DNA of 64,000 nt from Euryarchaeota archaeon UBA89. Lineage in GTDB: Archaea > Thermoplasmatota > Poseidoniia > Poseidoniales > Thalassarchaeaceae. The notes under the pieces are model-generated. The model did no database searches. It was not told where the DNA came from and saw nothing but the letters and a program-made list of their open reading frames with translations. The stretch spans positions 19,103-83,102 of the forward strand of contig DAFS01000037.1 of assembly GCA_002495525.1 (NCBI GenBank), read 5' to 3'. Shown here one piece after another: positions 8,978 through 44,859 of the stretch. Made by a program: the position numbers and the translations under genes. The number at the start of each line of letters is the position of its first letter. Within the stretch, counting starts at the first letter, position 1.

Positions 8978-11900
8978 CTACAAAGAAATTCTATTATCAC
9001 AAATAGGGCATTTAATCATTTTAAGTCCCATTGATACTTCAAATCTCGATGAACACTCAGGGCATAAAATTTGTCTATTAATTTCTGGTATTTCTGCCAC
9101 TCCTGAAGGTGGCAAAGGTATTGCTTGTAGTGGTACAGATAATTCTTGTTGTTTCTCCTCAAATCCGATTTTCATTCCTCTTACATTAGAATTCTTCCGA
9201 CTTTCCCTTCTTTGTTTCCTAGTATTCGTTTCCTCAATATCCTCATCTATCAATTCAATCTCTGAAGACTTAATTTCGATATCTGTTGAATCTACAATAT
9301 CAACTACATTTTCTTCTAAGACAATGTTTCCGGTTGCAACCCTTCTTCTTTTTCTACCAACCCACTTTAATGCACTTAATGACATTGTAGATAGTACTAA
9401 CAGACATATTAGTAAGACCGTTATTGAGATTCCAGCCATTAGTATTCCAAAATTTTGCTCATCAAGACCTAAGTATATTCTCATCTCATCAAGTAAATTT
9501 AAGTCACCTCTATCGGGGTCATTATCATCTATTAAAGATCTTATTTCCCATCCATCTATTTCATTCCAACTCAGAATAATAGATTGATCACTCAATGGGC
9601 TCCTATCCACGGAAGAAAGATGATTTTTTCCTGTTGTAATCCTATCGGACAGTCCAATCCATTCTTCATCATGAATTGGATTCATCAGCCCATATTGTAT
9701 CTGACTGCCTGTCGGGCCGACAAAGTCATAAAAAATCTGTATACCTAAGTGGGTTTCAGTCATTTGAATATTACCAATTCCTTTAGATGGTATTTCTACA
9801 CTGAGATTTTCTAAAGCCGTCATGGTCGAATCAGTAACTTTTGCAACTAATTTTGATTCTGCATCTGAGCCTTCTTTCCAAACCGAATAGATATAATCGC
9901 TACCATCATACGTAATTACTGACATCTTTTGCATGCCTGCTTCATCTCCAATAGCCTTCCTATAAGTCCAAGAAGTTTGGTCACTGGAACCATGTGCATA
10001 CCACAATCCTATTCTTTCGTCACCAGTGATATCGTCTCTATTTGATTGGTATAGTACGTGAGTATATTCTCCCCCTAGTTCTACAGTTACTGGGTCAGAA
10101 TCATACATACTAAGTTCTATTTCGTCAATAACATTTGGTGTGAGTTCCCAGTCGCTAGCTAATTTAGGGTAATCCGATGTTAATAAGAACACACTGGTTA
10201 GGTCCTTGAAAGTCCCTCCTGTTGAAATATCTCTATGATAACCTCCAATAATTATGTCAGTTCCTCTGACATCCATGTCGATACCAAAATATTTCCCATC
10301 TGATAACGATATAGGTTGCATTAAGTCTTGAACAGGGCTCATTTCACACGTAGCGTCAATTCTCGAGTAACTTATTGTTTGTTTGAAGTAACCCTGATTG
10401 TCAATATATCTCCTAGTCCAAGAAATATGAGCGTATCCATCACTTGTACTCCAAGAAGTCAAATCTCCCGACCATTTCACTTCAAGCATATTAGAACAAG
10501 GTACTAGTGCAAGATTTTCATTTAAGCGATATAGAGCCAAACCTCCTTCTTTGCTAGTAATAACTAAACCTTCTCCATTTAGATCTATGACTCTCACTGG
10601 TTCTTCCCCATAATCGAATATTAAATCACGAGGGGCTTTCAATGATGACTGATCTACAAGAATTGTAGAAGTAATTTCATTGTTACTCATGTCTAAATCA
10701 CTTTCTCCTTGAACTGTAATTTTTATTTCCAGAGGTCCCACTTCTGGATGAATATATGCAAATGCAATTTGACTTGCACCTTGCCCCACCACAAGGGAAA
10801 TAGTGGTTGTAGAAACTTCCATCCAACCAAGATCATTTTTCAGCCAAAGAGTCGCATCTACAGACATTGCATTAGTTGAACCTAAGTTATCAACTCTACC
10901 GGTAATTAGGAATTGTTCCTGAGGTCTTGGTATTGATGGTTCTGTCTTTACCGCTCCATCTCTGAAAGCTAAATCAATACCTTGTGGTCTTTGTAGAACC
11001 GGGAATGAAATTGATATGTCATTATCCGATTCATTATTTTCTTGTATCTCATCATCAGGGTCTAAAGAAACTGTTAATTGTTTATCCCCTACTGTAGATG
11101 GGTTCCATGATAGTGAAATTTCTATTATGTCTCCACTTTCTAAACTTTGTATGATTATCTCATCTTTTCTAAATCCATCCTCCAAAAGATAAATCCTCAA
11201 TTCATCTGCTGAAATGTCACCTATATTTCGTATCTGAACTTTTGCTTCTAAAAATGTATTTACATATGTCTCACTAACTGGTATTCCATATTCTTGAACT
11301 GAGATTCCAGTTCTAAACATCAAGTCGGGAGAAGGAGGATTATTGTCAATTTCAACTGTAATTCTAATTTCTTCAGATGCTACACCTACTCCACTAACAA
11401 ACCTGACAGAGAACCTTTGTATCCCATCATCAGTATTCTCAGTATCCCACGGTATTGACCATTGTATTTCTTCTGCTCCTGAACCTGAATAATAAGTCAT
11501 ATTTTTCCATTCATCAGTCCCTAGCCTCCACTGTAGTTGAGCACCATTAACGGTTTCCAATAACCCACTAATTTCAACGTCCCCACTCACAAGATCTTGG
11601 TTGCTAGGCGAATCTACTTCTAGAGATATTATTCCTAAATTATGAGTATTTTTTGTCGTATTACTCCATTGTTCGAACTCATTTCTAGATTTTACCTCAA
11701 TTTGGAGAGTTTCTGCATCTACATCAACATCTTCTTCAAAATTTGGAATATCAAAATTTGTAGTCCAATTAATTGTTCCAAGTGCCTGATGCCAATCAAC
11801 TAGGACACCTGTTGAGAGAGGCCCTCCTCCAGTTGGTCTGTACTTGTATGTGACTCGAACTTGAATTTCTTCAGTAGTCCCATTCTCTTCTCCAGCTTCA

Positions 11901-13810
11901 TTAATATGTCCTCTGACACTGTAACTTTGACCTTCAATTAACCATAAACCACTTGGTTTTTCTATTACTGCCCAGTTTCCTGTTCCTTCACCAACTGGGG
12001 GGTCACCTCCTCCAGTTCCATTTCCGGGGTCACCTCCTCCATTCCCTCCACCTGTATCATCTCCTAACATAGCCTGAAGAATTAGATTTCCATCGATTAT
12101 TCCAAATCCATAATCTTCATTCCATATATCTGAAACAGACGGCATTGAGGCGGTCCCTCTAACTTCCGAATTATTTCTCAATAAATCCTTAACTTCCTGA
12201 GGTTCTAATTCATCATCTATTTGTAAAATTATTGCAACTAATCCTGCAACTGCCGGTGTTGACATGCTGGTGCCATCCATCGATACATAGCCATCATCCG
12301 CGAGAGATGACGAATCTTGCCCTGGGATAGTTGAACTTGACGTGGCATGTTGTGCTGACGTAATACCTGAACCCGGTGCAACTACATCGGGTTTCAATTC
12401 ATCCCATTTATTTTCATCATTATCGTCTACTCTAGGTCCTGAATTTGAGTAATCTGCAATATCATCATCATTTCTTTGAATTGTATTTTTGTCATCTATT
12501 GCCCCAACAGTAATCGAAGAATCAGCGGCACCTACCGAAGTGACTCTATTGCTTCCATCATTCCCTATTGCAGCAATAGGTACAATTCCTGCTTCGGCGC
12601 AATTATTAACAAGTCTAGCTGCAGAATTATTCCCATCATCTCCTTGATCATTTTCGCCAACTGGTGAGCTTCCGCTCCCAAATGACATGGTCATTACATC
12701 GATACCTTCGCTTGAATCATTATTCCCCCAATCCGTATTTACATTTTGTAAGACCCATTGCAATCCTTTGATTATAGGTCCCTCATCTCCGCCTGCACTT
12801 CCTCCTGAATCAGTCATTACTTTTACGTCAACAAGATAGGAACCCGGCGCATAGCCTTGGTTTACTCTTCTAGAATCTCCAGTACCTAGAGCAATTCCAG
12901 CAACATGAGTTCCATGACCGTTCCCGTCATCTGGATCGAATTCACCATCATTACATTCTTGAGAGTTCCAAGATGTTGCATCGCAACCTGCTAACCATTT
13001 TGGATCTGAGAGGTCATCTGGTTGTTTCTCATTATCATTATTATTATCTGAAAAATCATCTAAAGAAAAATGCTCATTATCTACTCCTGAGTCTAAAACT
13101 GCGATAACCACTCCTGACCCATCATATCCAAAATCTCTCAATGTTTCATCATACACCTCAGATGTCTGGACTTTAGACCCTCTAGTTGCCACGCTCAGAT
13201 AAGAGACAATTTTATCCTGTTCTTCTATCATTACAACTCCATCTTGCTGCCATATTTCTATCAATGAACTAACTGGGACATGATCAATTACTACAGAATC
13301 AATATATTCTACAGGGAAAAACCAAGAACCTTCTTCTTCCCATCCATGATTAACTAAAATTTCTTTCAGTTTTTGTAGATCGGTTTCACCGGGGTGCCAT
13401 GAGTATCCTACAATTATCGCAGTGGTCATTCGTCCATCATTTCCTAGAATCGCAGTTGCAGAATGAGATTCTTTTCCACCTGCAATCATATATTGTAGGC
13501 TATCTTCCATTCCATTACTATCCCTATCAGTATTGAAATTCATCCACCAGTACGGTTCTTCAACTGCGGGACTCGCATCCCAAGGGGGAAATCCAATCCC
13601 AAGAAATTTTTCGGGACATATCTCATTATGACAAATTAATGCAGGGATTCCATCATCTATTACTTGTAACAAACCTTCATTATCCTCGTCAAGGTGCTGA
13701 TTATAGTTCTCTTCCGAAGGTACAATTGCAGAAACTCCTACTGATAAATCTAGTACTAACATCAGTATTACAACTAACATAGGCCCTACTGTTTTCGATG
13801 CTCCTGCCAT
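8978..13810 (-). CDS. Giant (1,610 aa) membrane-anchored subtilisin-family (S8) serine protease with CARDB-like domains and a cytoplasmic zinc-ribbon tail
   Basis: It starts with a signal peptide. The catalytic triad motifs are VIAVLDSGVD, GHGTHVAG and DGTSMSTPAVAG, with the protease domain at about 12130-13140. A Gly-rich linker follows (GGGNGGGDPGNGTGGGDPP). A CARDB-like segment ends ...DPDDEIQENNESDN. A single TM lies at about 9368-9451, followed by a 129-aa acidic tail ending CPECSSRFEVSMGLKMIKCPICDNR. Confidence 0.9.
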   Translation of the reverse strand: MAGASKTVGPMLVVILMLVLDLSVGVSAIVPSEENYNQHLDEDNEGLLQVIDDGIPALICHNEICPEKFLGIGFPPWDASPAVEEPYWWMNFNTDRDSNGMEDSLQYMIAGGKESHSATAILGNDGRMTTAIIVGYSWHPGETDLQKLKEILVNHGWEEEGSWFFPVEYIDSVVIDHVPVSSLIEIWQQDGVVMIEEQDKIVSYLSVATRGSKVQTSEVYDETLRDFGYDGSGVVIAVLDSGVDNEHFSLDDFSDNNNDNEKQPDDLSDPKWLAGCDATSWNSQECNDGEFDPDDGNGHGTHVAGIALGTGDSRRVNQGYAPGSYLVDVKVMTDSGGSAGGDEGPIIKGLQWVLQNVNTDWGNNDSSEGIDVMTMSFGSGSSPVGENDQGDDGNNSAARLVNNCAEAGIVPIAAIGNDGSNRVTSVGAADSSITVGAIDDKNTIQRNDDDIADYSNSGPRVDDNDENKWDELKPDVVAPGSGITSAQHATSSSTIPGQDSSSLADDGYVSMDGTSMSTPAVAGLVAIILQIDDELEPQEVKDLLRNNSEVRGTASMPSVSDIWNEDYGFGIIDGNLILQAMLGDDTGGGNGGGDPGNGTGGGDPPVGEGTGNWAVIEKPSGLWLIEGQSYSVRGHINEAGEENGTTEEIQVRVTYKYRPTGGGPLSTGVLVDWHQALGTINWTTNFDIPNFEEDVDVDAETLQIEVKSRNEFEQWSNTTKNTHNLGIISLEVDSPSNQDLVSGDVEISGLLETVNGAQLQWRLGTDEWKNMTYYSGSGAEEIQWSIPWDTENTDDGIQRFSVRFVSGVGVASEEIRITVEIDNNPPSPDLMFRTGISVQEYGIPVSETYVNTFLEAKVQIRNIGDISADELRIYLLEDGFRKDEIIIQSLESGDIIEISLSWNPSTVGDKQLTVSLDPDDEIQENNESDNDISISFPVLQRPQGIDLAFRDGAVKTEPSIPRPQEQFLITGRVDNLGSTNAMSVDATLWLKNDLGWMEVSTTTISLVVGQGASQIAFAYIHPEVGPLEIKITVQGESDLDMSNNEITSTILVDQSSLKAPRDLIFDYGEEPVRVIDLNGEGLVITSKEGGLALYRLNENLALVPCSNMLEVKWSGDLTSWSTSDGYAHISWTRRYIDNQGYFKQTISYSRIDATCEMSPVQDLMQPISLSDGKYFGIDMDVRGTDIIIGGYHRDISTGGTFKDLTSVFLLTSDYPKLASDWELTPNVIDEIELSMYDSDPVTVELGGEYTHVLYQSNRDDITGDERIGLWYAHGSSDQTSWTYRKAIGDEAGMQKMSVITYDGSDYIYSVWKEGSDAESKLVAKVTDSTMTALENLSVEIPSKGIGNIQMTETHLGIQIFYDFVGPTGSQIQYGLMNPIHDEEWIGLSDRITTGKNHLSSVDRSPLSDQSIILSWNEIDGWEIRSLIDDNDPDRGDLNLLDEMRIYLGLDEQNFGILMAGISITVLLICLLVLSTMSLSALKWVGRKRRRVATGNIVLEENVVDIVDSTDIEIKSSEIELIDEDIEETNTRKQRRESRKNSNVRGMKIGFEEKQQELSVPLQAIPLPPSGVAEIPEINRQILCPECSSRFEVSMGLKMIKCPICDNRISL

Positions 13811-23230: not shown

Positions 23231-24502
23231 ATGAGTGCTTCAGCAGGTGACTTTGTTACGCCAGGAACACGTGTTTTAGCAGATGAAAATACGTCTCTAG
23301 GTGATGGGCTTGTTTCTACAGAAAATGGTGCCCTGGCTTTACTTTCAGGGAAATTAATTGAAGAGAATGGAGTCATCTCAGTTGAGATTTCAGGTTCCAC
23401 TGCTAATTTACCAAAAATTGGCGATATAGTAATTGGGCAAGTAAATCGTCTTAATGCGAAAACAGCTGAGATTAGGATATTACATATTGAAGGAAAAGAT
23501 GGTGGAGAAAGAGATATTCCTGCTTTGAAATTATTTGCCGATATATACGTGACTGATTTTGTTGATCGATACATTCCATCAGCCGGAGATGCAATGCGTT
23601 CTAGAGATATTATAAGGGCTAAGATAACTCAATTTGAGCCCATGCTAAAAGCTTCAACTAGAGATGGTCCTAGTTTGGGTGTCGTCCACGCTATTTGCCC
23701 TACATGTGGTGCAGAATTACAAAAAAATGATTCTATTCCAGATTTTAATGTGAAATGTAATATGTGTGATTACAAAGGCTATCGTGTTCTTTCTAGTGGT
23801 TTTGGCACTGGTTATTCAGTACCTGAAAATTCAGATATTGATAAATTCAATAGACCTGGTGAGAGATGGTCTGAGCAGGCAGAGAAAGTTCTTGGGCATG
23901 ATGGAGCCCGTCCATATCTTTCCCCCTTAGCAGACTTTAGGAGGGGAATAAAACATGAAATTCCACCCTCAGCCGCCAGGCAAATTGGCCGTAATAATTC
24001 TAATAATCGTTCAAGAGGTCAACGTAGGGAGATGCATAAAACAACTTGCACAATGTGCTTAAAACCTACTGAAGTGCCATTTAAGCCAACTCCTGGGAAG
24101 CCAATTAGATGCCGTGAATGTATGGATAAGGTGAATAATGGTACTGCTACAAAGGAAGAACTCTCTGCTGAACGTCAGGTTTTGAAAGCAGCTAGATCTA
24201 AAATGTTAGAATCATCTGGAATTAAGTTATTCGTGGGAAGTATTTCTTGGGATGCAAACGAAGAGGACTTAAGGAAATTATTTTCAACTTTCGGGGAACT
24301 TAAAGAAGTACATATTGCAAAAGATCGTGAGACAGGTAAATCTAGAGGTTTTGCCTTCATTAAATTTTCAAGTCACAAAGATGGACAAAAGGCGGTCAAA
24401 GAATTAGATGGTACAGAATTTCATGGTCGTAAAATAAGTGTTCAAGAGTCTAATGAATCTCGTGGTGGGTCTGGTAATAGGCGTAGACATGGTAGAAAAT
24501 AA
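23231..24502 (+). CDS. csl4: Exosome cap subunit Csl4 fused to a CxxC-x17-CxxC module and a C-terminal RRM with an RG-rich tail
   Basis: The Csl4 layout is present: an N-terminal domain, an S1-like segment (PKIGDIVIGQVNRLNAKTAEIRI) and a Zn ribbon (CPTCGAEL...CNMCDY). Then comes CTMC-x17-CREC at about 24046-24130. The RRM has RNP2 KLFVGSI and RNP1 RGFAFIKF at about 24224-24454. The tail is SRGGSGNRRRHGRK. Confidence 0.8.
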   Translation: MSASAGDFVTPGTRVLADENTSLGDGLVSTENGALALLSGKLIEENGVISVEISGSTANLPKIGDIVIGQVNRLNAKTAEIRILHIEGKDGGERDIPALKLFADIYVTDFVDRYIPSAGDAMRSRDIIRAKITQFEPMLKASTRDGPSLGVVHAICPTCGAELQKNDSIPDFNVKCNMCDYKGYRVLSSGFGTGYSVPENSDIDKFNRPGERWSEQAEKVLGHDGARPYLSPLADFRRGIKHEIPPSAARQIGRNNSNNRSRGQRREMHKTTCTMCLKPTEVPFKPTPGKPIRCRECMDKVNNGTATKEELSAERQVLKAARSKMLESSGIKLFVGSISWDANEEDLRKLFSTFGELKEVHIAKDRETGKSRGFAFIKFSSHKDGQKAVKELDGTEFHGRKISVQESNESRGGSGNRRRHGRK

Positions 24503-24540: not shown

Positions 24541-26319
24541 ATGGGAGGCTGGCTTGTAATAGATGGCTATGAGGATGAGCCAGCGGCTTTTGGCGTTCCA
24601 AACTATCTTGGTTTCCATATTCGTTATATTTGCGGAGTTCTAGAATCTAGAGGTGTCGAATATACATATCTAACTATAGATCAATGGAGGATTAAATATA
24701 AACAATTTCTGAATGATAAATCAAGTAGAGATAAGATTAGAAGTGAATTAAGTAATCTTGCAGGAACTGTAGTGCTTGCCGGTTCTATAGTTCCAGGAAA
24801 ATATATCCGTGGCACACCAGTTAGTCAGAGAGAATTAGATCAAATCCTTTCTATTATCCCTAGCGAAGTTCCAATATTATGCGGAGGCTGGGCGATAAAA
24901 AATTGGAGATACTCGGGGTGGACTCCTTTGCGTACAAATCTTTTCTGTGCTGTTAATGATGTTGATTCTTCTTTGGCTTTATTTCTTTCTACCGGGGAAT
25001 GGAAACATAGTAGGAGGACAAAAGATGAATGGACTCTTTGGGCGCATTATGGATCTATCTCTAAGGCAGTTACAAACCATCCTGATCTATTAACCGTAGA
25101 TGGAAGATCTGGGCCACTAACCTATGAAATAGAATTATATCAGGGTTGTGTTAGGTTCAAAAGAGGATGTAAATTTTGTATAGAGCCGAAAAAAGGCGTT
25201 CCATTATGGAGAAGCGAAGATGATATCCTAAAAGAAATATCTGGTGCCTTAGATTCTGGTGTGAAAAATATACGTATTGGTGGTGCAACGGATATCTACA
25301 CATATCGTGCAGAAGGCGTTAGAGAATTAGAATATCCAATTCCTAATCCCGAACCAATAAGTCAAATTCTTCATGGGGCAAGAGAAGATGAGAGATTAGA
25401 TATCTTACATGTCGATAATGGAAATCCTTCGATAATTGCTGAGAATATCGAACCATCTACTGAAATAACAAAATGTTTAGTTGAGAATCTGAGTGATGGT
25501 GCAGTTTTATCATTCGGTTTAGAATCAGCAGATCCGCATGTTCATCAGATGAATTGGCTTAACTGTGACCCTAAACAACTCAAGATTGCAATCAAACATA
25601 TCAATGATTTTGGTAGAGTTAAGGGAAAGAGAGGATTACCTAAACTTTTACCCGGTCTTAATTTCATTGCAGGATTAAATGGAGAAACTAAAAACAGTTA
25701 TGATATGAATTTCAATTTATTAGAAGATTTAAGATCAGAGGGGCTGTGGTTACGAAGAATAAATATTAGACAAGTTGAAGGTCAAGGTTTTCAAGAAATA
25801 TCTGGAAATGATTTTAGAAATTTTAAGAAAAAAGTGCGTGAAGAGATTGACAAACCTCTTCTTGAAGAAATATTCCCTATTGGTACAGAATTGTCGCACA
25901 TTTGGTGGGAGTCTCAAGGAGATAGAATTAGAAGACCTGAACAGGTCGATAATCCTGTCCTCAGTTCGCCTTCAATTCATGGAAAATCGGGAATTACTTT
26001 TGGGAGACAGATTGGTGCTTATCCAATATTAGTCGGAGTTCCATACCTAATTCCTCTTGAAACTAGCTCAAATATTGTAGTCACAGGTCATGGAATGAGA
26101 AGTATTTCAGGTGTTGAAATCGGCTTGAATATTAATTCAGTTTCTCAACAACAACTGGAATCTATACCTGGAATTGGAAAGAAAGCAGCATGGAGAATAA
26201 TTAGTTCCAGAGCTAAAGCCAGTCGGAGCTCAAAAATTCCCTTTGATTCCGTTGAAATGGCTTTTGAAATGGCGCAAGTTGAAATATCTCCGATAGTAGA
26301 AAAAGTATTATCAATCTGA
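24541..26319 (+). CDS. Radical SAM enzyme with a C-terminal helix-hairpin-helix (COG1031-like architecture)
   Basis: The cluster region is YQGCVRFKRGCKFCIEP. TIM-barrel-like motifs follow (IRIGGATD, SFGLESAD). The C-terminal HhH is LESIPGIGKKAAWRI. Confidence 0.7.
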   Translation: MGGWLVIDGYEDEPAAFGVPNYLGFHIRYICGVLESRGVEYTYLTIDQWRIKYKQFLNDKSSRDKIRSELSNLAGTVVLAGSIVPGKYIRGTPVSQRELDQILSIIPSEVPILCGGWAIKNWRYSGWTPLRTNLFCAVNDVDSSLALFLSTGEWKHSRRTKDEWTLWAHYGSISKAVTNHPDLLTVDGRSGPLTYEIELYQGCVRFKRGCKFCIEPKKGVPLWRSEDDILKEISGALDSGVKNIRIGGATDIYTYRAEGVRELEYPIPNPEPISQILHGAREDERLDILHVDNGNPSIIAENIEPSTEITKCLVENLSDGAVLSFGLESADPHVHQMNWLNCDPKQLKIAIKHINDFGRVKGKRGLPKLLPGLNFIAGLNGETKNSYDMNFNLLEDLRSEGLWLRRINIRQVEGQGFQEISGNDFRNFKKKVREEIDKPLLEEIFPIGTELSHIWWESQGDRIRRPEQVDNPVLSSPSIHGKSGITFGRQIGAYPILVGVPYLIPLETSSNIVVTGHGMRSISGVEIGLNINSVSQQQLESIPGIGKKAAWRIISSRAKASRSSKIPFDSVEMAFEMAQVEISPIVEKVLSI

Positions 26320-26378
26320 TACATTAGTATATCAGTATAGAGGAATAGTCATATTCTCAAGATGTACGCTGGCTTTGT

Positions 26379-29300
26379 ATGTCGAACAATCAGTCTTCTC
26401 AAAAGAATCTCGCGGTTAGTATTTGTATACTCTTTCTATTGGTTCCTTTGTTAGGAATTATCGAATTTCCGGAAGATATAGAAATTAGTGAAGATACAGA
26501 GTTTTCATCAGTAGTTAGAACCTCTAGTGCCATGAATTCTCCGGGTTCTGAAAGAGGAAGTGTATTCACTAATTCAGTATTAGAACTTAATGCGGGCTCT
26601 CCTACTTTAGTTCTTAATAATGGGTCTTTAGTTTCCTTTGATAATGGTTCTCCAATTTTCTCAGAAGGCAATGTCATTTCTATTTCGGGCCAATGTTCAC
26701 TTTTGTCAAATTTCAGTCTTTTCTGTTCAGGAATTAATAACTACGGGCAACTCGGATTAGGTGATCAGCAATTATTGAGTGGATACGTTGATTTTGGTAA
26801 TAAAATCCCTGCGGCTTTATCAGAAGGAAATAATCACTATTGCGCTATCTTGGATGACGGTTCTGTTTCTTGCTGGGGGAGAAATAACAATGGCCAACTT
26901 GGAGATGGTACAAATGCAAATAGAAATTCTCCGGTTTCAGTTAATCTTGGTACCAATAAAACAGCAGTTTCTATTTCTAGCAGTAATGACTTCTCTTGTG
27001 TATTACTGAATACAGGAGAGATTTCTTGCTGGGGTGACAATTCATACGGAATTCTTGCCGATGGCACAACATCGAATAGTAATTCTCCAGTAATTGTTAA
27101 TCATTCAGTAGGTGAAAGGGCAGTTTCAATCGCCACTCCAGGATATAGTGTATGTGCAATATTTTCTTCGGGCAATATTAGTTGCTGGGGAGAATCGTAT
27201 ACGATTTCTTCCTCTAATAGTAATTTGATAAGTGGTTCAATTTCAATAACTCTTCCATCAAATAGAACTGCTATTTCACTTGATGGAACTGGTTCTCATG
27301 TTTGTACAATCCTAGATAATAATTCAATTAATTGTTGGGGATTAAACACCTATGGACAATTAGGGAATGGGGAGTGTTCATCTGTTATTCCAAGTAGTGG
27401 ATGTACCGGAACTAATGCTAATTCTCCTCAATACGTGAATCTTTCAAATGTTATCGCGATATCATCAGGTTCCGATTCTACCTGTTCGATTAATACTAAT
27501 TATCAATTATATTGCTGGGGTAAACAAGAACAGATATTTGATAATACTTCTAATTCTAAATTATCACCATATCTGATGAACTTTAGTGCCTCTGATGTTT
27601 CTTATTCTGATCAAGATATGGATGGAGATGGTATCGTCAACGATTTGGATGTTCACATGTCTGGCGATGATGATGGTGATGGAGTGCCTTCACCTACCGA
27701 TCCTTATCCTAGTAATCCTGCTAGATGGATGGATTGTGAACTTGGATCTTGGGGTAGAATTGATTGTACAGAATCATCTTTGGGGCACTTCTCATTATTT
27801 TCAGCATTATATCAATCTGAATGCGATTTAGGCGAGTATCAACATCAAACCGGAAAATCATATTGTAACCAAGCTTCAGCCGGACATTATGTCGATTCTA
27901 TCGCATCTGCAAATCAGTCAATTTGTCCCGAGGGTTACTATCAAAATCAAATCCATTCATCATCATGTGTTATTTCTAATCCCGGTAGTTTTGTATCTTT
28001 GACCACAGGCGATGCTGGAAATACCAATACCTCCTCATATAACCTTAGCTCAACTAGCGCAAGTTATACTGGTCGTATCGGTAATCAATATGATAATTAT
28101 GATTATTACAACATTAATATTGCGAAGTTTCACCATATTTCAGTAAGTATTGAATCATCAAATGCTGAAGTGAATATCTCACTTTATGATCAATCAATGG
28201 TTCTTCTAGACATTAACAACTCTTTATCTGCTGAACCTATTGTATCTACTAATCTAACTTCAAGTTCTTCCACACGTAATATTTTTATTGTGATTGAGAA
28301 AGTTAACTCGACTGGAGATTATCATATGAATCTAACATACTATACTTCAGATGGTTCTAATGTGATTGGAGATATTTTTAATCTTATAGATTCAGAAATT
28401 GGTGTAGATGAGTCACTATGTTCTGCTGGAACATTTGAGTCAGGATTTGGAAGTTCTTCATGTACAGCAGCAGCACAAGGATATTTTGTACCTAATGCTG
28501 GTTCAATATCTCAAACACCATGTTCACCGGGTACATATCAGGGATTGTCAGGGCAAACGAGTTGCTTGAACACCTCTCCTGGATATTATACTGCTGCTTA
28601 TGGTTCTTTTATTCCGACACCTGCTTCTTTAGGTTATTATGTTAATACAACAGGCGCTACTAACCAAATTGCTTGTTTACCTGGGACGTATCAAAATCAA
28701 ACCGCTCAGACTAGTTGTATCGATACAGATGCAGGATATTTTACTTCTTCATCTGGTTCTCCAGCACAGATACCTTGCTCTAATGGAACATATCAACCCA
28801 ATACTAATCAAGAATCTTGTATTCTTTCTTCTCCAGGCTATCATGTTCCTAACAATGCATCTTCTACTCAGATACCTTGTAATCCTGGAACATATCAGCC
28901 ATTTTCGGGACGTTCAGACTGTATTGATGCGAGCCCGGGATATTATGCTTCTTTAGCAGCATCAACAAACCAATCTCCTTGTGAAATAGGTAGTTTTCAA
29001 CCAAATTCTGGTCAGATTAGGTGTCTTGCAGCTGACCCAGGTCATTTTGTAGATACTAATGCCTCAGTTACTCAAACTGCGTGCGACTTAGGAACATACC
29101 AGCCTTATTCTTCTAGCTCGAGTTGTTTCGATGCGGGTCCCGGGCATTATGTAGATTCAACAGGCTCATCATCACAAATTGCTTGTTTAATTGGGACTTA
29201 TAATCCTAATATTGCTTCTAATAGTTCAACATCTTGTTTAGAGTCTGAACAAGGTTATTACGTTCCAAATAATGGTTCATCAGTACAATTAGTTTGTTTG

Positions 29301-31157
29301 CCAGGGACTTATCAGCCTAATTTTGCCCAATCTTCTTGTATAGATGCAGATTCAGGATATTACGTTGATTCATATCAAGCAATTAGTCAAGAACCGTGTT
29401 CATTAGGTACTTACCAGCCACAAGCCGCACAAATCGGTTGTTATGGAGCAGATCCTGGTCATTATGTCGATTTACCTGCTGCTGCGATTCAAACTCCTTG
29501 TCCAGCCGGTTTTTACAACCCCTCTTCTTTATCGACAAACTCTGAATCATGTATTAGTGCGGATCTAGGATATTTTGTCCCATCAGAGGGGTCATCTTCA
29601 CAATTTATCTGTTTGGAAGGTACTTACCAGTCATCTGAAGGTCAATCATCATGTATAGATTCTCCAGAAGGAGCATATGTAATGAATCCGGGACAATCAG
29701 AATTTATTGAATGTCTGGAAGGAACATTTCAACCTAATGCAAAGTCGGTAAATTGTTTAGACGCAGAAATTGGGCATTTCTCATCAGGAAAGATGTCAAT
29801 CAGTCAGATACCTTGTCCAGCGGGAACTTATCAGCCTAATTCTGGTCAATCTTCATGTCTAGATGCAGATATCGGTTACTATGTTTCCTCAGAAGGTCAA
29901 TCTTCTCAAGAGATTAATCCATTTGATTTCTATACCGATTCTCCCGGTAGTTCTTTTCTCACCCAATGTCCAAGCAACTATATTACAATAATTGAGGGTG
30001 CAACATCGATTAATAATTGCCTATTAGATTCTGATTCAGATAGGATTATTGATGAAGATGATATTGATGATGATGGTGATGGTAGGTTAGATTCTGTAGA
30101 TTCTTGTAGCCCTGGAGTAATTGGTTGGATTAGTAATTCAACGACAGATATTGATGGTGATGGATGTAAAGATGATATTGAGGATTCCGATGATGATAAT
30201 GATTCAATTTTAGATCAATACGATGCTTTCCCTCTCGATTCAAGTGAATCTATTGATACAGATTCCGATGGGATTGGTGATAACCAAGATACAGACGATG
30301 ATGGAGATGGTTGGTCTGATTTGCAAGAATCTACTTGTGAAACGGATTCATTAATATCTCAGTCCGTACCTATTGACACAGATTCTGATGGAGAATGTGA
30401 CATTGCAGACTCAGATGATGATGGAGATGGTGAATTGGATGTAAGTGATTGGGCTCCATTAGATGCTAATGAGTGGCTTGATACTGATGGAGATGGCATT
30501 GGTAACAATGCCGATAGTGATGACGATAACGATGGCTGGTCAGATATTAAAGAAATTGAAGAAGGTACTAATCCCCTTCTTCCAGACACAGATACAGATT
30601 CTTATATCGATTCTAATGATGAATTCCCTAATGATATTTCAGAATGGATTGATTCAGACGATGATGGAGTAGGAGATAACTCAGATTCTCATCCTGGTAT
30701 CAAATATTTCCAAACCAACCTACAATTTATATTAGCAATTTCTGGAGGAGTTATATTACTAGCTGTATTTGGCTATCTAGCTGTCATTACCCTGCGTAGG
30801 AAGCCTGAAAATATCAGTGAATCAAAACCTGAAGAAAATGAATTAATTGAAGTTGATTATCCTCATGAAGGAATGTCAGAGCCTAATGCTGAATTAGAAA
30901 ATAATAATTTAGTAGAGGATTCTTCTGAAGAAGAAACAGAAGTTGTCAGAGATACTTCTCACATTGATGCTTTGCTTAATGAGTTGCCAACTCCTCCAAA
31001 ACCTCAGGTTATATCGCCACCTGAAGGAACACCTGTGAACGAATACGGGCAAAGAGTATGGGCGGATGAGACGGGTCAAGTTTGGTGCTTAAATTCTGAT
31101 GGTTCAATATTAAGGCATGATGCCGCAACTGGCGGATGGGTTCAATATCATAACTAA
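26379..31157 (+). CDS. Giant (1,592 aa) type-I surface protein: RCC1-like repeats, ephrin-receptor-like Cys repeats, a PPC-like domain, thrombospondin type-3-like Ca-binding repeats, a TM and a cytoplasmic tail
   Basis: It starts with a signal anchor. RCC1-type blades (SCWGRNNNGQLGDGT, SCWGDNSYGILADGT, NCWGLNTYGQLGNG) span about 26700-27540. C-x-x-G-T-Y-Q repeats lie at 27730-27990 and 28419-30020. A PPC-like beta-sandwich spans about 28070-28345. DxDxDGxxDxxD repeats lie at 30021-30696. The TM is at 30724-30793 and the tail is 121 aa. Confidence 0.85.
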   Translation: MSNNQSSQKNLAVSICILFLLVPLLGIIEFPEDIEISEDTEFSSVVRTSSAMNSPGSERGSVFTNSVLELNAGSPTLVLNNGSLVSFDNGSPIFSEGNVISISGQCSLLSNFSLFCSGINNYGQLGLGDQQLLSGYVDFGNKIPAALSEGNNHYCAILDDGSVSCWGRNNNGQLGDGTNANRNSPVSVNLGTNKTAVSISSSNDFSCVLLNTGEISCWGDNSYGILADGTTSNSNSPVIVNHSVGERAVSIATPGYSVCAIFSSGNISCWGESYTISSSNSNLISGSISITLPSNRTAISLDGTGSHVCTILDNNSINCWGLNTYGQLGNGECSSVIPSSGCTGTNANSPQYVNLSNVIAISSGSDSTCSINTNYQLYCWGKQEQIFDNTSNSKLSPYLMNFSASDVSYSDQDMDGDGIVNDLDVHMSGDDDGDGVPSPTDPYPSNPARWMDCELGSWGRIDCTESSLGHFSLFSALYQSECDLGEYQHQTGKSYCNQASAGHYVDSIASANQSICPEGYYQNQIHSSSCVISNPGSFVSLTTGDAGNTNTSSYNLSSTSASYTGRIGNQYDNYDYYNINIAKFHHISVSIESSNAEVNISLYDQSMVLLDINNSLSAEPIVSTNLTSSSSTRNIFIVIEKVNSTGDYHMNLTYYTSDGSNVIGDIFNLIDSEIGVDESLCSAGTFESGFGSSSCTAAAQGYFVPNAGSISQTPCSPGTYQGLSGQTSCLNTSPGYYTAAYGSFIPTPASLGYYVNTTGATNQIACLPGTYQNQTAQTSCIDTDAGYFTSSSGSPAQIPCSNGTYQPNTNQESCILSSPGYHVPNNASSTQIPCNPGTYQPFSGRSDCIDASPGYYASLAASTNQSPCEIGSFQPNSGQIRCLAADPGHFVDTNASVTQTACDLGTYQPYSSSSSCFDAGPGHYVDSTGSSSQIACLIGTYNPNIASNSSTSCLESEQGYYVPNNGSSVQLVCLPGTYQPNFAQSSCIDADSGYYVDSYQAISQEPCSLGTYQPQAAQIGCYGADPGHYVDLPAAAIQTPCPAGFYNPSSLSTNSESCISADLGYFVPSEGSSSQFICLEGTYQSSEGQSSCIDSPEGAYVMNPGQSEFIECLEGTFQPNAKSVNCLDAEIGHFSSGKMSISQIPCPAGTYQPNSGQSSCLDADIGYYVSSEGQSSQEINPFDFYTDSPGSSFLTQCPSNYITIIEGATSINNCLLDSDSDRIIDEDDIDDDGDGRLDSVDSCSPGVIGWISNSTTDIDGDGCKDDIEDSDDDNDSILDQYDAFPLDSSESIDTDSDGIGDNQDTDDDGDGWSDLQESTCETDSLISQSVPIDTDSDGECDIADSDDDGDGELDVSDWAPLDANEWLDTDGDGIGNNADSDDDNDGWSDIKEIEEGTNPLLPDTDTDSYIDSNDEFPNDISEWIDSDDDGVGDNSDSHPGIKYFQTNLQFILAISGGVILLAVFGYLAVITLRRKPENISESKPEENELIEVDYPHEGMSEPNAELENNNLVEDSSEEETEVVRDTSHIDALLNELPTPPKPQVISPPEGTPVNEYGQRVWADETGQVWCLNSDGSILRHDAATGGWVQYHN
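28419..30020 (+). repeat. Degenerate in-frame tandem repeat with a 34-codon period made of two alternating 17-codon half-units
   Basis: Half-unit A is C-x-(P/x)-G-T-Y-Q-x3-(G/A)-Q-(S/T)-S. Half-unit B is C-x4-G-Y-(Y/F)-V-x3-G-S-x-(S/T)-Q. I counted about 14 GT(Y/F)(Q/N) cores by eye. Confidence 0.75.
30021..30696 (+). repeat. Array of Asp-rich calcium-binding repeats (thrombospondin type-3-like)
   Basis: DTDSDGIGDNQD, DTDDDGDGWSD, DTDSDGECDIADSDDDGDGELD, DTDGDGIGNNADSDDDNDGWSD and DSDDDGVGDNSD recur. The DNA shows a recurring GAYGAYGATGGAGATGG core. Confidence 0.75.
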
Positions 31158-31159
31158 TA

Positions 31160-32140
31160 TTAGAATTGTATAACGTTAGCACCCCATGCTAAACCGCCAC
31201 CGAAAGCTGCTGTAACTATCAAATCACCATTATTAATTAGTCCCTTTTCCATTGCTTCTTTCATTGCAATGGGTACACTCGCACCTGCTGTATTACCATA
31301 TTTATGTAAATTAGTGTAGGTTTTTTCCATTCCAAGGCCTAATTTCTCCATTCCTGTTTTGATAATGTTAATATTTGCTTGATGAGGGATCACTAAATCA
31401 ACATCCTCAATACTTTTCCCTGCTCTACGTAATGATTCATTCACTGCTTGAGGAAAAGCATCTATGGCGAAATTCCATACTGCTCTCCCATCCATATGGA
31501 AATATTGTGCACCTTCTACAAATTCATCTGAATCAAATGGTGTTCTCACTCCTCCAGCTGGTATTTCTATTACAGATGAACCAGATCCATCAGACATTAG
31601 CCATGAACTAATGATTCCCTTTCCTTCCTTAACCTCAGACAATACGGCTGCCCCTGCTCCATCTCCAAACAATACACAGGTCGCTCTATCTTTCCAGTTC
31701 AATATTCGTGAGTAAATTTCTGAACCAACAACGAGGACATTTCGATAATCATTTGTGCCTACATATCTACTCCCTATATCTAACGCATGAATCCATCCAG
31801 CACATACTGCATTGATATCAAAAGCCGCACAATCAGTACATCCTAATTTATCTTGAATTATTCCAGCAGTAGATGATAATGGCACATCAGGAGATGAGGT
31901 TGCCAGAATGATTAAATCAATATCTCTAGGTTTTAATTTAGCATCATCTAAAGCCTGTCTACACGCTTCTACTGCCAGATCTGAAGTACATACATCGGAA
32001 CTGGCAATCCTTCTTTTTTTCATTCCTGTTTTTGTAGTAATCCATTCGTCACTTGTGTCTACATATTCCATCCAGTCTTCATTACTCATTTCATTTGGTG
32101 GTACATATGCTCCCAATCCAATAATGCCAACCGATACCAT
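31160..32140 (-). CDS. fabH: 3-oxoacyl-ACP synthase III (FabH)-like condensing enzyme
   Basis: The Cys-His-Asn triad contexts are AVCAGWIHAL, IPHQANINII and YGNTAGASVP. The length (326 aa) is typical. Confidence 0.85.
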   Translation of the reverse strand: MVSVGIIGLGAYVPPNEMSNEDWMEYVDTSDEWITTKTGMKKRRIASSDVCTSDLAVEACRQALDDAKLKPRDIDLIILATSSPDVPLSSTAGIIQDKLGCTDCAAFDINAVCAGWIHALDIGSRYVGTNDYRNVLVVGSEIYSRILNWKDRATCVLFGDGAGAAVLSEVKEGKGIISSWLMSDGSGSSVIEIPAGGVRTPFDSDEFVEGAQYFHMDGRAVWNFAIDAFPQAVNESLRRAGKSIEDVDLVIPHQANINIIKTGMEKLGLGMEKTYTNLHKYGNTAGASVPIAMKEAMEKGLINNGDLIVTAAFGGGLAWGANVIQF

Positions 32141-41574: not shown

Positions 41575-41694
41575 TGATTCTACGAAAAGGTTCCATGATA
41601 TCAAGTCATTTGATTGAGAAGTTAGTTTATTTTGATTTATTCTTATAAACAAATCTTAGATAAGATTATACGAAGTTGTACAAGCGTTCATTTA

Positions 41695-44600
41695 GTGTTG
41701 AGGAACGAATTGTACAGTTCTATCTTGGCCCTCGCCATGGTGTCATTAATGGTTATTATGACTTTAGGGGGGCTTTTTGACTCAGATGAGCAAGATTTCT
41801 ATGAGCTCAACGAACTTGAAAAAGAGGAATTACCACTCTTTGCATCCAGCCCAGGTCATACTGTGTTCGGTGAATATGTAGGCGCCCATTGGTGTGGTCC
41901 TTGTATGAGTAGTGCATCCCCTTCTCTCCATAATTTGAAAACATCTAATCCTGAAGATTTCACATATATTTCGTTTTTCGAAGGTTCCGGAACTGGATGG
42001 CCTTCTGATTCAATTGGTAGTTCTGGGACAAGAAGAGACCACGTAATGGGTGCATCTAGTGGTTACCCTACATTCTCTTTTGCAGATGAGCAAGCAGGTT
42101 CTTGTTACAAAGTAGGCGCTGGTGGAACAAATTACTATGATGCAGATTTCACATCTGGTGGATGTATGGCACCATCTTCTACAGATTTTTCTATGGAACT
42201 TTCCACTTCCCTAAATCCTTCAGGAGATACTGTCACCACTGATTTGTCAATTTCATACTTAGGGACCATACCATCAGTTTCAGTGTATGTATATGCAGCC
42301 ATTACCGAACAATCAGGGGCTGAAAACTATGACGATGGATACAAGCCCCATCATGTTTGGAGATCTTGGTTGTTAGACAGTAGCCAGAGTGGATTTGAAC
42401 AAGTAGTCCTTTCACCTAGTTCAACTGCTGAACTTTCTTGGGATAAACCTTTGAGCACTGTTAGAGCTGCAGGTGGCAATACTCAATTTGAGAATTTTTG
42501 GCCTGTAGTTGCACTAATGGACGGCCCTCACACAACCTACAATAATTTCTATTCTGCTGTTGATTTGGACATGGCTCCCTTAGTTGATATGGGGATATCT
42601 GATTTCACTATTCAAGGCGATTCTGGTTTCGTTCAAGGTGATGAAATAGTTTTACAGACTATTATTAGAAATAATGGTGTTGAAACATACTCTGAGGGTG
42701 GACAAATCAGTATATACTATCTTGATGGTTCCGAGGAACAGCTAATCTCTAGCACCTCATTGAATAATAATATTGCATCCGGTTCTACTCAAATGTTGAC
42801 AACTGATTTTGACACTTCCTCGATTGAAATGTCGCCCTCAGGTACCTCAGTATTTAGGGCGAGACTTTCAAATCTGGAAGGCGATAGAATACCGAGTAAT
42901 AATTATCAAGATGTAGCTGGGCTACATGATTTGCCTCCAGTGCCAATTACCCCTACTTCCGTCTCTTCTCCTAATGTAAATAGAGGCAGTTCCATTCAAT
43001 TTGAAGTAACTGCAATATCAAATGACTTAGTTGATACGATTGAATCTATGTATCCTACATTGCATTATTCAGAGGCAGGTTCTGGTTCTTGGGATGATAC
43101 ATGGATTGAAGGGCCTGAAATTATTGGAAATGGTGGGAATGCAAGGTACTTATATTCAATAAATACTGAATTAACTTCACAAGTAGGTGACTATGATCTT
43201 AGAGTGATGTGGACAGATGCAGGTGGACAAGATAGTGAATGGTTAATTTCAGAGGATGCATTTGTACTTCAAAACGCACTGCCTTCAATTTATTCAAGTA
43301 GTGATGATCAATATTCTGGAATGCCTACAGTGAAAGTAGATACTGAAGAAAAGGTTTCCATAATAGGCTTAATCAGTGATGCGGAGACTCCTTTGCAACT
43401 TCTAGATATATCAAGTGATGACGGTGAATTCTTGTCATGGGATTCAGTAAACTTAGAATTAACAGTCAAATTTACACAAGTAGTTAGAGATAGTCACGGA
43501 AATGCATTGCCACAAGGAATTTACATTAGTGTCAATGACGGAGACGATATTAATTCAGGACTAATTTTATTCAATGTTATAGAAAATGGTGCTCCCCGTT
43601 GGTCTCCTATTAATACACAATCATTCAATGAAGGAGGTTATGGGAGTATCACATTTACAAATTATCTTTCAGATACCGATGATGCTGGGAACCCTGTGCC
43701 GGTAGCTGAACTTACATTATCAATAATTGATGTATCTGATGAAAATCTAGTTGAAGTGGATTTAAACGGCCATTCCTTATCAGTAGTCTCTTTGAATGAA
43801 GATGACTTTGGAATTGTTGATATTGTAATTAGGGCTAGTGATGGTATAAAATTCTCAGATACAGTTGTTACTTTCCATGTCCTCAATGTTAATGATGCAC
43901 CTAGGATTAATTTAACCGATATAGAACAAATTAATCTTCAAACTGGAGATATTTATTCAATAAATCTACTGGAAAGAATTTCAGATATCGATAATTCGGA
44001 TGAAGAAATTTGGGTAGTTGTAGAAAATCAAGTTCCAGGAGGAACTCAGTGGAATCCTATAACTGGTGATTTATTCATGTCTTGGCAAGATTCTGGGACT
44101 CAGATGGTTATTATCACTGCTGAAGATAGACATGGTTTTTCCTCCTCTTTTGTAATCACTGTTAATGTAGTAGATGATTTACCTTTAATCTGGAAATATG
44201 GTTCAATTGGTGACTTTACAATTTCTATCGATACAACTGATTATTACACTAATCCTTCGGTCTCAATTACCAATGTAGGAGTTCTTCAATTATCAGAGAT
44301 TTCAGTATTTTGGGGTATTTGTAATTCTGTAACTGGGATCTGCCATACTTCTGGAATATCTCACAATCTAGGTCCATTTATCGTGAATCACATTAGCGGT
44401 GATGGGTTGGGTGTCGGAGATTACATGACATTCACTGTAAGAGCCGTCGATCAGAATGGGATGGATAGAGTGACAGAAGAAACTTACAAGATTCATGCAA
44501 CATTGCCTGAGTTAGTTTTCGAAGATGAAAATCCTACTTCAAACGATGCATCATCTAGTTCTACATTGTCTCCATTAATGGTGATAGGAATTTTGAGTTT

Positions 44601-44859
44601 AGTAGTTCTATCTGTATTGGTAGCATCTCTTTCAACAGTTGCAATTATGAGGAGGAAAAAGAATGATGTCGAAGAATCTCGATATATTTCACAAGCACCA
44701 TTCGAATTGATGGATGATGTAACTTCTCCAAAGAGTTCGTCAAAGCTACCTCCGCCACCTCCAATGATGCCTAAATTACCTGCCACTGGTCTTCCAGATG
44801 GCTGGTCAATGGAACAGTGGTATCACTATGGAGAAGAATATCTCCGACGCCAAAAATGA
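41695..44859 (+). CDS. Giant type-I surface protein: N-terminal thioredoxin-fold (WCGPC) domain, CARDB-like and cadherin-like repeats, a TM and a Pro-rich cytoplasmic tail
   Basis: The signal anchor is SSILALAMVSLMVIMTL. GEYVGAHWCGPCM is encoded with WCGPC at 41890-41904. A CARDB-like segment (IIRNNGVETYSEGG...) and a cadherin-like VLNVNDAPR motif follow. The TM is at about 44560-44650 and the tail reads KLPPPPPMMPKLPATGLPDGWSMEQWYHYGEEYL. The start is uncertain (GTG 41695, ORF-track 41632 or ATG 41737). Confidence 0.8.
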   Translation: MLRNELYSSILALAMVSLMVIMTLGGLFDSDEQDFYELNELEKEELPLFASSPGHTVFGEYVGAHWCGPCMSSASPSLHNLKTSNPEDFTYISFFEGSGTGWPSDSIGSSGTRRDHVMGASSGYPTFSFADEQAGSCYKVGAGGTNYYDADFTSGGCMAPSSTDFSMELSTSLNPSGDTVTTDLSISYLGTIPSVSVYVYAAITEQSGAENYDDGYKPHHVWRSWLLDSSQSGFEQVVLSPSSTAELSWDKPLSTVRAAGGNTQFENFWPVVALMDGPHTTYNNFYSAVDLDMAPLVDMGISDFTIQGDSGFVQGDEIVLQTIIRNNGVETYSEGGQISIYYLDGSEEQLISSTSLNNNIASGSTQMLTTDFDTSSIEMSPSGTSVFRARLSNLEGDRIPSNNYQDVAGLHDLPPVPITPTSVSSPNVNRGSSIQFEVTAISNDLVDTIESMYPTLHYSEAGSGSWDDTWIEGPEIIGNGGNARYLYSINTELTSQVGDYDLRVMWTDAGGQDSEWLISEDAFVLQNALPSIYSSSDDQYSGMPTVKVDTEEKVSIIGLISDAETPLQLLDISSDDGEFLSWDSVNLELTVKFTQVVRDSHGNALPQGIYISVNDGDDINSGLILFNVIENGAPRWSPINTQSFNEGGYGSITFTNYLSDTDDAGNPVPVAELTLSIIDVSDENLVEVDLNGHSLSVVSLNEDDFGIVDIVIRASDGIKFSDTVVTFHVLNVNDAPRINLTDIEQINLQTGDIYSINLLERISDIDNSDEEIWVVVENQVPGGTQWNPITGDLFMSWQDSGTQMVIITAEDRHGFSSSFVITVNVVDDLPLIWKYGSIGDFTISIDTTDYYTNPSVSITNVGVLQLSEISVFWGICNSVTGICHTSGISHNLGPFIVNHISGDGLGVGDYMTFTVRAVDQNGMDRVTEETYKIHATLPELVFEDENPTSNDASSSSTLSPLMVIGILSLVVLSVLVASLSTVAIMRRKKNDVEESRYISQAPFELMDDVTSPKSSSKLPPPPPMMPKLPATGLPDGWSMEQWYHYGEEYLRRQK

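Follow-up and report, generated by a model that had tools for sequence, protein, structure and literature searches.

The window, a stretch of 64,000 nucleotides, comes from an archaeon of Marine Group II (MGII; Poseidoniales) and holds, at positions 26379..31157 of the forward strand, the gene of a large surface protein. The open reading frame (ORF) listing places an ATG at its start and gives a product of 1,592 amino acids (aa); coordinates, strand and length are exactly those proposed in a first-pass annotation made from the letters alone. The product is predicted to be a type-I membrane protein, with putative binding domains and long repeat arrays on the outside of the cell and a small conserved module on the inside, behind the transmembrane (TM) helix. 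What is new about this protein is the single tectonin-like blade on its predicted cytoplasmic tail, the reuse of this blade on other ectodomains and the fixed synteny of the gene. The features along the gene, with the evidence for each in brackets, are as follows.

26379..31157, plus strand: whole gene, 1,592-aa type-I membrane surface protein (ORF listing; stop codon included)
26403..26480, plus strand: hydrophobic segment at the N-terminus, aa 9-34, either a signal peptide or a signal anchor (Kyte-Doolittle windows above 1.8)
26481..26693, plus strand: segment ahead of the propeller, aa 35-105, perhaps a degenerate seventh blade (unmatched by the blade profile)
26694..27593, plus strand: RCC1-type beta-propeller with six recognisable blades, aa 106-405 (Pfam, UVR8 in the PDB, blade profile)
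27594..27728, plus strand: short acidic linker, aa 406-450, containing a pair of DxDxDG calcium-loop motifs (motifs, invariant residues)
27735..27983, plus strand: ephrin-receptor-like Cys-pair repeats, block 1, three units, aa 453-535 (Pfam, E 1.9e-6 for the segment alone)
27984..28418, plus strand: beta-sandwich resembling PPC and collagen-binding domains, aa 536-680 (AlphaFold2 fold, Foldseek; no Pfam match)
28419..30020, plus strand: ephrin-receptor-like Cys-pair repeats, block 2, 15 units, aa 681-1214, predicted stalk (Pfam, Mst1 in the PDB)
30021..30713, plus strand: thrombospondin-type-3-like calcium-loop array, aa 1215-1445 (10 motifs, sub-threshold profile matches)
30714..30797, plus strand: TM helix, aa 1446-1473, followed by RRK (hydropathy)
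30798..30944, plus strand: acidic, poorly conserved cytoplasmic linker, aa 1474-1522 (43% identity among close and 16% among distant orthologues)
30945..31034, plus strand: conserved short helix and proline-rich stretch, aa 1523-1552, DTSHIDALLNELPTPPKP...PPEG (alignment, AlphaFold2)
31035..31154, plus strand: C-terminal four-stranded beta-meander resembling a tectonin blade, aa 1553-1592 (AlphaFold2, profiles, hhalign)

An ORF that is long, rich in repeats and derived from a metagenome might be an assembly chimera, or might have been mis-called through fusion of unrelated repeat-rich fragments. The probability of this is next to nothing. The identical 1,592-aa protein is present on seven contigs of the public assembly index, among them a TARA scaffold 183 kb long and, separately, a Logan assembly of run SRR5036683, and 19 orthologues are collinear with it end to end and conserve its Cys pairs. 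The GC content is uniform along the gene (0.37-0.385) and equals that of the rest of the window. A repeat scan detected no long DNA tandem repeats in the gene, indicating that the repeat units diverged anciently and that collapse of the array at assembly is unlikely. The first-pass annotation had named a lack of hidden Markov model (HMM) matches and a chimeric ORF as the outcomes that would overturn it; HMM matches exist, and the seven contigs together with the synteny show that the ORF is not chimeric, an explanation that is effectively refuted. The promoter and terminator scan relied on a bacterial consensus and is hence uninformative for this gene.

The database search returned 2,804 relatives. 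The closest orthologues (P0001-P0013) share 53-90% identity with the window protein at 100% coverage and are 1,601-1,633 aa long, and a further set shares 38-48% identity at lengths of 1,650-1,790 aa. Both sets carry RCC1 and Ephrin_rec_like domains throughout, an architecture found in hundreds of database proteins, and, where named, go under 'hypothetical protein' or 'alpha-tubulin suppressor-like RCC1 family protein'. The full-length alignment referred to below comprises 20 sequences, the window protein and its 19 collinear orthologues. Among GTDB representative genomes the relatives fall within the Poseidoniales, and two syntenic loci (L013 and L015) are labelled Thalassarchaeaceae, in agreement with the archaeal host proposed at first pass; bacterial matches (Myxococcota, Actinomycetota, Chloroflexota and others) span the RCC1 part only. 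The description of the modules as eukaryote-style has to be given up. RCC1 is abundant in bacteria, TSP3_bac and PPC are prokaryotic families, and the sole chiefly eukaryotic label, Ephrin_rec_like, is yet carried by thousands of MGII proteins (the 2,804 matches), so that the expression is largely a naming effect and should be dropped. A 'Choice-of-anchor V' label on one relative was set aside, as it concerns an N-terminal domain absent from the window protein.

The hydrophobic segments at aa 9-34 and 1446-1473 and the modules listed above bear out the type-I topology and module order of the first-pass annotation; the tail beyond the TM helix measures 119 aa instead of the 121 given there. The RRK triplet behind the helix would fit the positive-inside rule. 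Of 56 Cys residues, 54 lie in the ectodomain, one in the signal and one, not conserved, in the tail. The RCC1 blades and repeat units account for 25 Cys pairs, which show little or no variation in the alignment. Paired Cys, sequons and the RRK triplet point to an extracellular ectodomain. This part contains 30 of the 32 N-x-S/T sequons of the protein, and four sequons are kept in at least 19 of the 20 sequences. The sequons seen at first pass are present, but composition-preserving shuffles yield 23.5 +/- 4.1 (p about 0.07), and their density follows from a composition rich in N, S and T, with no enrichment beyond it. A match to the sorting signal PVV_CTERM of the exosortase/archaeosortase type remains below its cut-off (E 0.004, 16.8 bits against 27) and lies on the TM helix, beyond which 119 aa follow, unlike in a sorting signal, whose TM helix and short basic cluster lie at the extreme C-terminus.

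Haloarchaeal S-layer glycoproteins have a C-terminal TM anchor and calcium-binding repeats. The window protein combines a strongly acidic ectodomain (net charge -158) and its 30 sequons, four of them conserved, with repeats predicted to bind calcium and a C-terminal TM anchor. These properties would suit a main lattice subunit of the envelope of this MGII clade (an S-layer or a glycocalyx canopy), anchored by its TM helix and not primarily an adhesin. We regard this as a possible though doubtful reading, since the layout is elongated and modular with binding-type heads, no known S-layer domain is matched in Pfam or NCBIfam, and the many paralogous classes combining RCC1 with Ephrin-like repeats in MGII are more typical of adhesin families. 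The evolutionary behavior of the gene, discussed below, speaks in its favor.

The N-terminal module is of the RCC1 type. Pfam RCC1 (PF00415) matches with E 5.8e-24 (84.8 bits against a curated cut-off of 21.7) and RCC1_2 (PF13540) with E 1.9e-25 (88.4 bits against 22); WD40_RLD gives 1.8e-37, yet remains below its own Pfam cut-off. In a sequence search of the PDB, UVR8 ranks best (2e-26), and HERC2 and RCC1 are also matched. Six blades with the motif C-x9-C[WS]G are recognised, at residues 116, 165, 217, 269, 319 and 379, where the first-pass annotation had counted at least five. Each has a conserved Cys pair, and the Cys, Trp and Gly columns are invariant in the alignment. A profile of blades 1-5 from the 20 orthologues recovers the held-out sixth blade with E 1.4e-9. 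The same profile leaves residues 35-104 unmatched (E at or above 0.08), so that a seventh blade is not recognisable there. Identity in the pre-propeller segment amounts to 64% among close and 44% among distant orthologues, and in the propeller to 53% among distant ones. With its xCWGxNxxGQLG signature, its period of ~50 aa and its strong HMM and PDB matches, the domain resembles RCC1, UVR8, HERC2 and bacterial RCC1-repeat proteins. It differs from RCC1, UVR8 and HERC2 in being predicted extracellular, in the Cys pair present in every blade and in having only six recognisable blades; a Ran nucleotide-exchange or UV-B function for the archaeal propeller is not plausible.

The ectodomain continues with repeats that would form a stalk. 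Pfam Ephrin_rec_like (PF07699) matches in 13 stretches (E 4.7e-41, 138.8 bits against a cut-off of 23.1), confirming the two blocks of C-x-x-G-T-Y-Q repeats noted before. Three Cys-pair units at 453-535 and 15 at 681-1214 make 18, of which 13 are exactly 34 aa long, with 11 out of 15 in block 2. Their consensus reads C-x-P-G-T-Y-Q-P-x3-Q-S-S-C-x-D-A-x-P-G-x-Y-V, and each unit covers only part of the 48-position Pfam profile. The Cys pairs of block 1 (453/463, 482/496 and 516/530) are invariant among the aligned orthologues, and 14 motifs of the form C-x-x-G-[TSF]-[YF]-[QNE] lie between residues 681 and 1146. In the PDB, aa 668-860 match the Chlamydomonas mastigoneme protein Mst1 (8tx1) with E 1.4e-6. 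The ephrin-receptor-like Cys-rich domains of the mastigoneme form a disulfide ladder with ~11 A spacing, and the authors suggest that this may render the filament robust (PMC10602792). By analogy with these tandem repeats, which in Mst1 build an extracellular disulfide-laddered rod (PDB 8tx1; PMC10602792), the Cys-pair repeats of the archaeal protein may form a similar rod. Mst1 is a eukaryotic filament-former with Ig domains and a polyproline helix, unlike the archaeal protein, which is membrane-anchored and has units predicted to hold one disulfide each.

Calcium-loop motifs occur in two places. Ten motifs of the DxDxDG type, predicted to bind calcium, lie within aa 1215-1445 and two more at 412-441, in the linker behind the propeller (DQDMDGDG and DDDGDG, with D413-G418 and D430-G435 invariant). 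Asp and Glu make up 35.7% of the array, whose Asp columns are invariant among aligned orthologues. The array of about 225 aa of DxDxDGxxDxxD loops described at first pass stands as far as the motifs and conserved Asp residues are concerned; the thrombospondin HMMs remain below their Pfam cut-offs, both TSP3_bac (PF18884; E 0.001-0.008, 16.5-19.4 bits against 25) and, on the array, TSP_3 (PF02412; E 0.0072, 16.4 bits against 25). The NCBIfam model MtsC (thrombospondin-3) gives 4.4e-5 on the array, also below cut-off, and the linker matches TSP_3 weakly (E 0.073). Precomputed PF18884 matches are present in some orthologues.

Between the two repeat blocks lies a segment free of Cys that is the least conserved folded domain of the protein (28% identity among distant orthologues). 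The AlphaFold2 (AF2) model of residues 531-682, built from 18 orthologous segments, is an all-beta sandwich with a predicted local distance difference test (pLDDT) score of 72.6 and a predicted TM-score of 0.73. Foldseek aligns this medium-confidence model with the collagen-binding domains of ColG and ColH (1nqj, 1nqd and 3jqw; 2e-5 to 1e-4) and with the 'pre-peptidase C-terminal domain' of a B. anthracis collagenase (5sv5; 9.6e-5), at target-normalised TM-scores of 0.60-0.77. A profile of the segment against the PDB also ranks a collagenase collagen-binding domain first, at a non-significant E of 0.15, with D-x-x-D-x-Y and Y-x-L motifs aligned. Pfam PPC (PF04151) finds no match on the whole protein (E up to 1) or the isolated segment (E up to 10). 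The PPC-like sandwich called at first pass is accordingly supported by the predicted fold (Foldseek 2e-5) and not by an HMM. The domain would share the beta-sandwich fold and the two aligned motifs with clostridial collagenase collagen-binding and PPC domains; unlike these, it sits within the predicted stalk instead of C-terminal to a protease, and lacks a PF04151 match.

The tail displays a conservation pattern of its own. Behind the poorly conserved acidic linker, identity among close orthologues rises to 83% in the helix and proline-rich segment (aa 1523-1552) and to 89% in the last 40 aa, the best-conserved segment of the protein among close orthologues, with 51% among distant ones. The AF2 model, based on an alignment of 25 tails, starts with low pLDDT, places a helix at model residues 7-13 and forms strands at 39-42, 48-51, 57-61 and 66-70, where pLDDT is about 86. 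Searched exhaustively as an HMM, the tail profile matched 111 proteins. Matches in a single stretch are full-length orthologues, their C-terminal fragments and a few other surface proteins, and the matches in multiple stretches that were checked include proteins assigned to Tectonin by Pfam (P0143, P0148 and P0158; up to 2e-129), which the profile matches in 5-16 stretches each. An alignment to the tectonin repeat G-x-V-W-x-x-N-x-x-G-x-I-x-(Y/F)-x-x-x-x-x-x-W covers the last 30-40 aa, and hhalign of the tail against tectonin units, cut out independently of the tail profile, returns a probability of 97.1%. Many of the top Foldseek matches of the tail model are single propeller blades (tectonin 2, 5fsb, at 30% identity; the sensor propellers BT4663 and BT4673; the NHL domain of PknD; the designed proteins Pizza and Cake), which is suggestive only. 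A profile search of the PDB with the tail gives summed matches to designed PQQ-type propellers, in which every stretch is non-significant. The spacing W...G...W had led us to consider a WW domain, which was rejected since the model is four-stranded and the sequence aligns to tectonin repeats.

The tail blade is not confined to this protein family. The same blade stands behind a CARDB and TSP3 ectodomain in P0145 (1,535 aa; locus L088, 189-4796, in a different genomic context) and behind Cys-containing TSP_3 repeats in the fragments P0138 and P0160. Its occurrence behind different ectodomains indicates a transferable cytoplasmic module that is shuffled between surface proteins. A second homology search, with the tail alignment, added no new architectures: everything it returned was a short C-terminal piece of a family member that begins at an internal Met codon.

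Other tails are found on paralogous MGII proteins with RCC1, or RCC1 and Ephrin-like, domains. A number of them (P0015, P0043, P0044, P0056, P0061, P0062, P0069, P0074, P0076, P0092, P0098, P0105 and P0120) carry short Trp-rich end modules of other kinds, for example DGYEWLxxxDGxxWYRxxxxxxEWxxW, QQWTDENGNTWRSMDNGITLWWDGTDWQQ and WLDNGEDGTNWYLDDDGNHWH, and among the paralogue classes with RCC1 and Ephrin-like repeats short basic tails also occur. The comparison suggests that MGII surface proteins carry a family of small beta-hairpin tail modules.

A conserved C-terminal module behind a proline-rich stretch, on a type-I protein and reused on other ectodomains, could also belong to a signalling receptor, in which ligand binding by the propeller or the PPC-like domain is relayed through the TM helix to a tail that recruits a cytoplasmic effector. 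The first-pass annotation had spoken of a receptor or adhesin. We consider a receptor of this kind quite unlikely because no output domain is found: at E up to 10, Pfam detects no kinase, cyclase, HAMP, DNA-binding or other output or catalytic domain in the tail, and on the whole protein only weak sub-threshold NCBIfam matches appear. Moreover, ~50 aa of poorly conserved acidic linker separate the TM helix from the module, the syntenic loci compared show no conserved signalling-gene neighbour, and a single-pass helix behind a long stalk would be a poor allosteric conduit, unless signalling proceeds by clustering.

In tectonin lectins such as 5fsb, six blades close into a propeller. The alignment of its last 30-40 aa with the tectonin repeat likens the tail to these lectins (PF19193; Laccaria tectonin 2, 5fsb); unlike them, it ends a membrane protein, is predicted to be cytoplasmic and is not recognised by the Pfam model. 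The tail contains one copy of the blade, at the extreme C-terminus, which does not amount to a closed multi-blade propeller, and no further copy was found elsewhere in the 64-kb window. One could imagine that the blades assemble in trans, with 5-7 tails, or six if the arrangement is tectonin-like, closing one beta-propeller beneath the membrane and clustering the spikes at fixed stoichiometry. This idea is speculative and rather improbable. If true, it would represent a natural single-blade propeller made from separate membrane proteins, and the small Trp-rich cytoplasmic tail modules of MGII would be a general system that organises the envelope. Apart from this, the tail suggests that the envelope is also organised from the cytoplasmic side, at a level so far unexplored.

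The genomic position of the gene is strikingly constant. The same neighbourhood surrounds orthologues of 67%, 42% and 40% identity and recurs in 15 loci of GTDB representative genomes (orthologues of 38-90%), in the order PGI, M23 peptidase, RmuC, ASD, methyltransferase, S1-Zn-RRM protein, radical-SAM protein, surface-protein gene, FabH-like KAS III and aldehyde dehydrogenase. With this synteny and the 19 collinear orthologues, the conservation of the architecture, which the first-pass annotation had proposed to check, is established. Comparison of the syntenic loci L003-L015, L021, L086 and L087 with window positions 24541..32140 gives 38-48% identity for the surface protein against 65-79% for its radical-SAM and FabH-like neighbours. 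The gene is a vertically inherited, fast-evolving core gene and not an island-borne accessory. Both properties, the one fixed housekeeping locus down to orthologues of ~40% identity and the faster evolution relative to the neighbours, would also be those of the envelope lattice subunit considered above. The 28% identity of the PPC-like domain is as expected if this domain presents an exposed ligand-binding or antigenic surface. Fast divergence, steepest in the PPC-like domain among the folded parts, fits selection from viruses, grazers or changing ligands.

Taken together, the gene can be best explained, with moderate confidence, as encoding a core cell-surface spike of an MGII archaeon, either an adhesin or an envelope protein, with binding heads on a stiff stalk and a tail blade that serves clustering or docking. 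The disulfide-laddered repeats and the calcium-loaded array would form the stalk, some tens of nanometres long, which would hold the propeller and the PPC-like domain off the membrane. Seawater calcium would keep the Asp-rich array next to the membrane folded. The two heads might bind polymers on particles, phytoplankton or other cell surfaces. On the cytoplasmic side, the predicted tail with its proline-rich stretch and single tectonin-like blade may cluster the molecules or dock them to a cytoplasmic partner, and an enzymatic role is not expected. An adhesive function fits the published view of MGII 'thrombospondin genes' as adhesion genes (PMC6461757).

Several observations weigh against this interpretation. 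Membership of the calcium-loop array in TSP3 and of the sandwich in PPC derives from motifs and a medium-confidence model (pLDDT ~73), with no above-threshold HMM matches. On the isolated 119-aa tail, Pfam finds no match at E up to 10, Tectonin (PF19193) included, and Foldseek of the tail model against the PDB returns no significant match (best E 0.17). In addition, adhesins usually reside in variable genomic islands, and a fixed housekeeping position is no less compatible with a structural envelope protein. The first-pass preference for a receptor or adhesin rather than a passive S-layer component goes beyond the data: synteny, acidic ectodomain and C-terminal anchor equally fit an envelope protein, and the present evidence does not separate an adhesin from a structural, S-layer-like one.

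MGII are among the most abundant archaea of the surface ocean; they are uncultured and their cell envelope is uncharacterised. Their attachment to particles and phytoplankton is known solely from genome inference. A conserved surface protein at a fixed position in one MGII clade is therefore a tangible candidate for either the envelope spike or the chief adhesin, and its domains could be produced and tested one by one. Should it be merely one of many modular adhesins, the result would be a useful annotation and no surprise. The family is large, already in databases and unannotated, and consists of modular archaeal surface proteins of a known kind. The rarity implied at first pass does not apply, as Rinke et al. 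2019 (PMC6461757) already cite MGII 'thrombospondin genes' as evidence of adhesion. The window protein shares with those genes the organisms, the TSP3-like repeats and the adhesion reading (PMC6461757); its orthologue group, fixed synteny, PPC-like insert and tail module are undescribed in the searchable literature, where the topics of RCC1, ephrin-like and MGII surface proteins yield no description of this family.

Several neighbouring genes deserve mention. The FabH-like gene at 31160..32140 on the minus strand encodes a 3-oxoacyl-ACP synthase III (ACP_syn_III 5.6e-29, ACP_syn_III_C 1.9e-31) and is convergent to the surface-protein gene, with stop codons 2 bp apart. An archaeon here carries a fatty-acid gene of bacterial type, which those syntenic loci that have kept it share at 72-85% identity. 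On the other side, the plus-strand gene at 23231..24502, whose position is kept in all syntenic MGII loci, encodes a 423-aa protein with a weak Csl4/EXOSC1-like match at the N-terminus and an RRM_1 domain at the C-terminus (3.2e-22), RRM being an uncommon kind of domain among archaea. The protein also has a treble-clef zinc finger (PF23477; 1.4e-11).

The window contains two further large surface proteins. The minus-strand ORF at 8978..13810 was considered as a paralogue of the surface protein and rejected, as its 1,610-aa product is a type-I surface subtilase (Peptidase_S8 1.4e-44) with a CARDB domain; behind its TM helix follows a tail of ~130 aa that ends in a CPEC...CPIC zinc-ribbon motif. 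The third, encoded at 41632..44859 on the plus strand, is a 1,075-aa protein without a Pfam match that has an N-terminal hydrophobic segment, a thioredoxin-like WCGPC motif and a C-terminal TM helix. It also carries a small tail module of its own, a proline-rich tail with the motif GWSxEQW that ends in LPDGWSMEQWYHYGEEYL.

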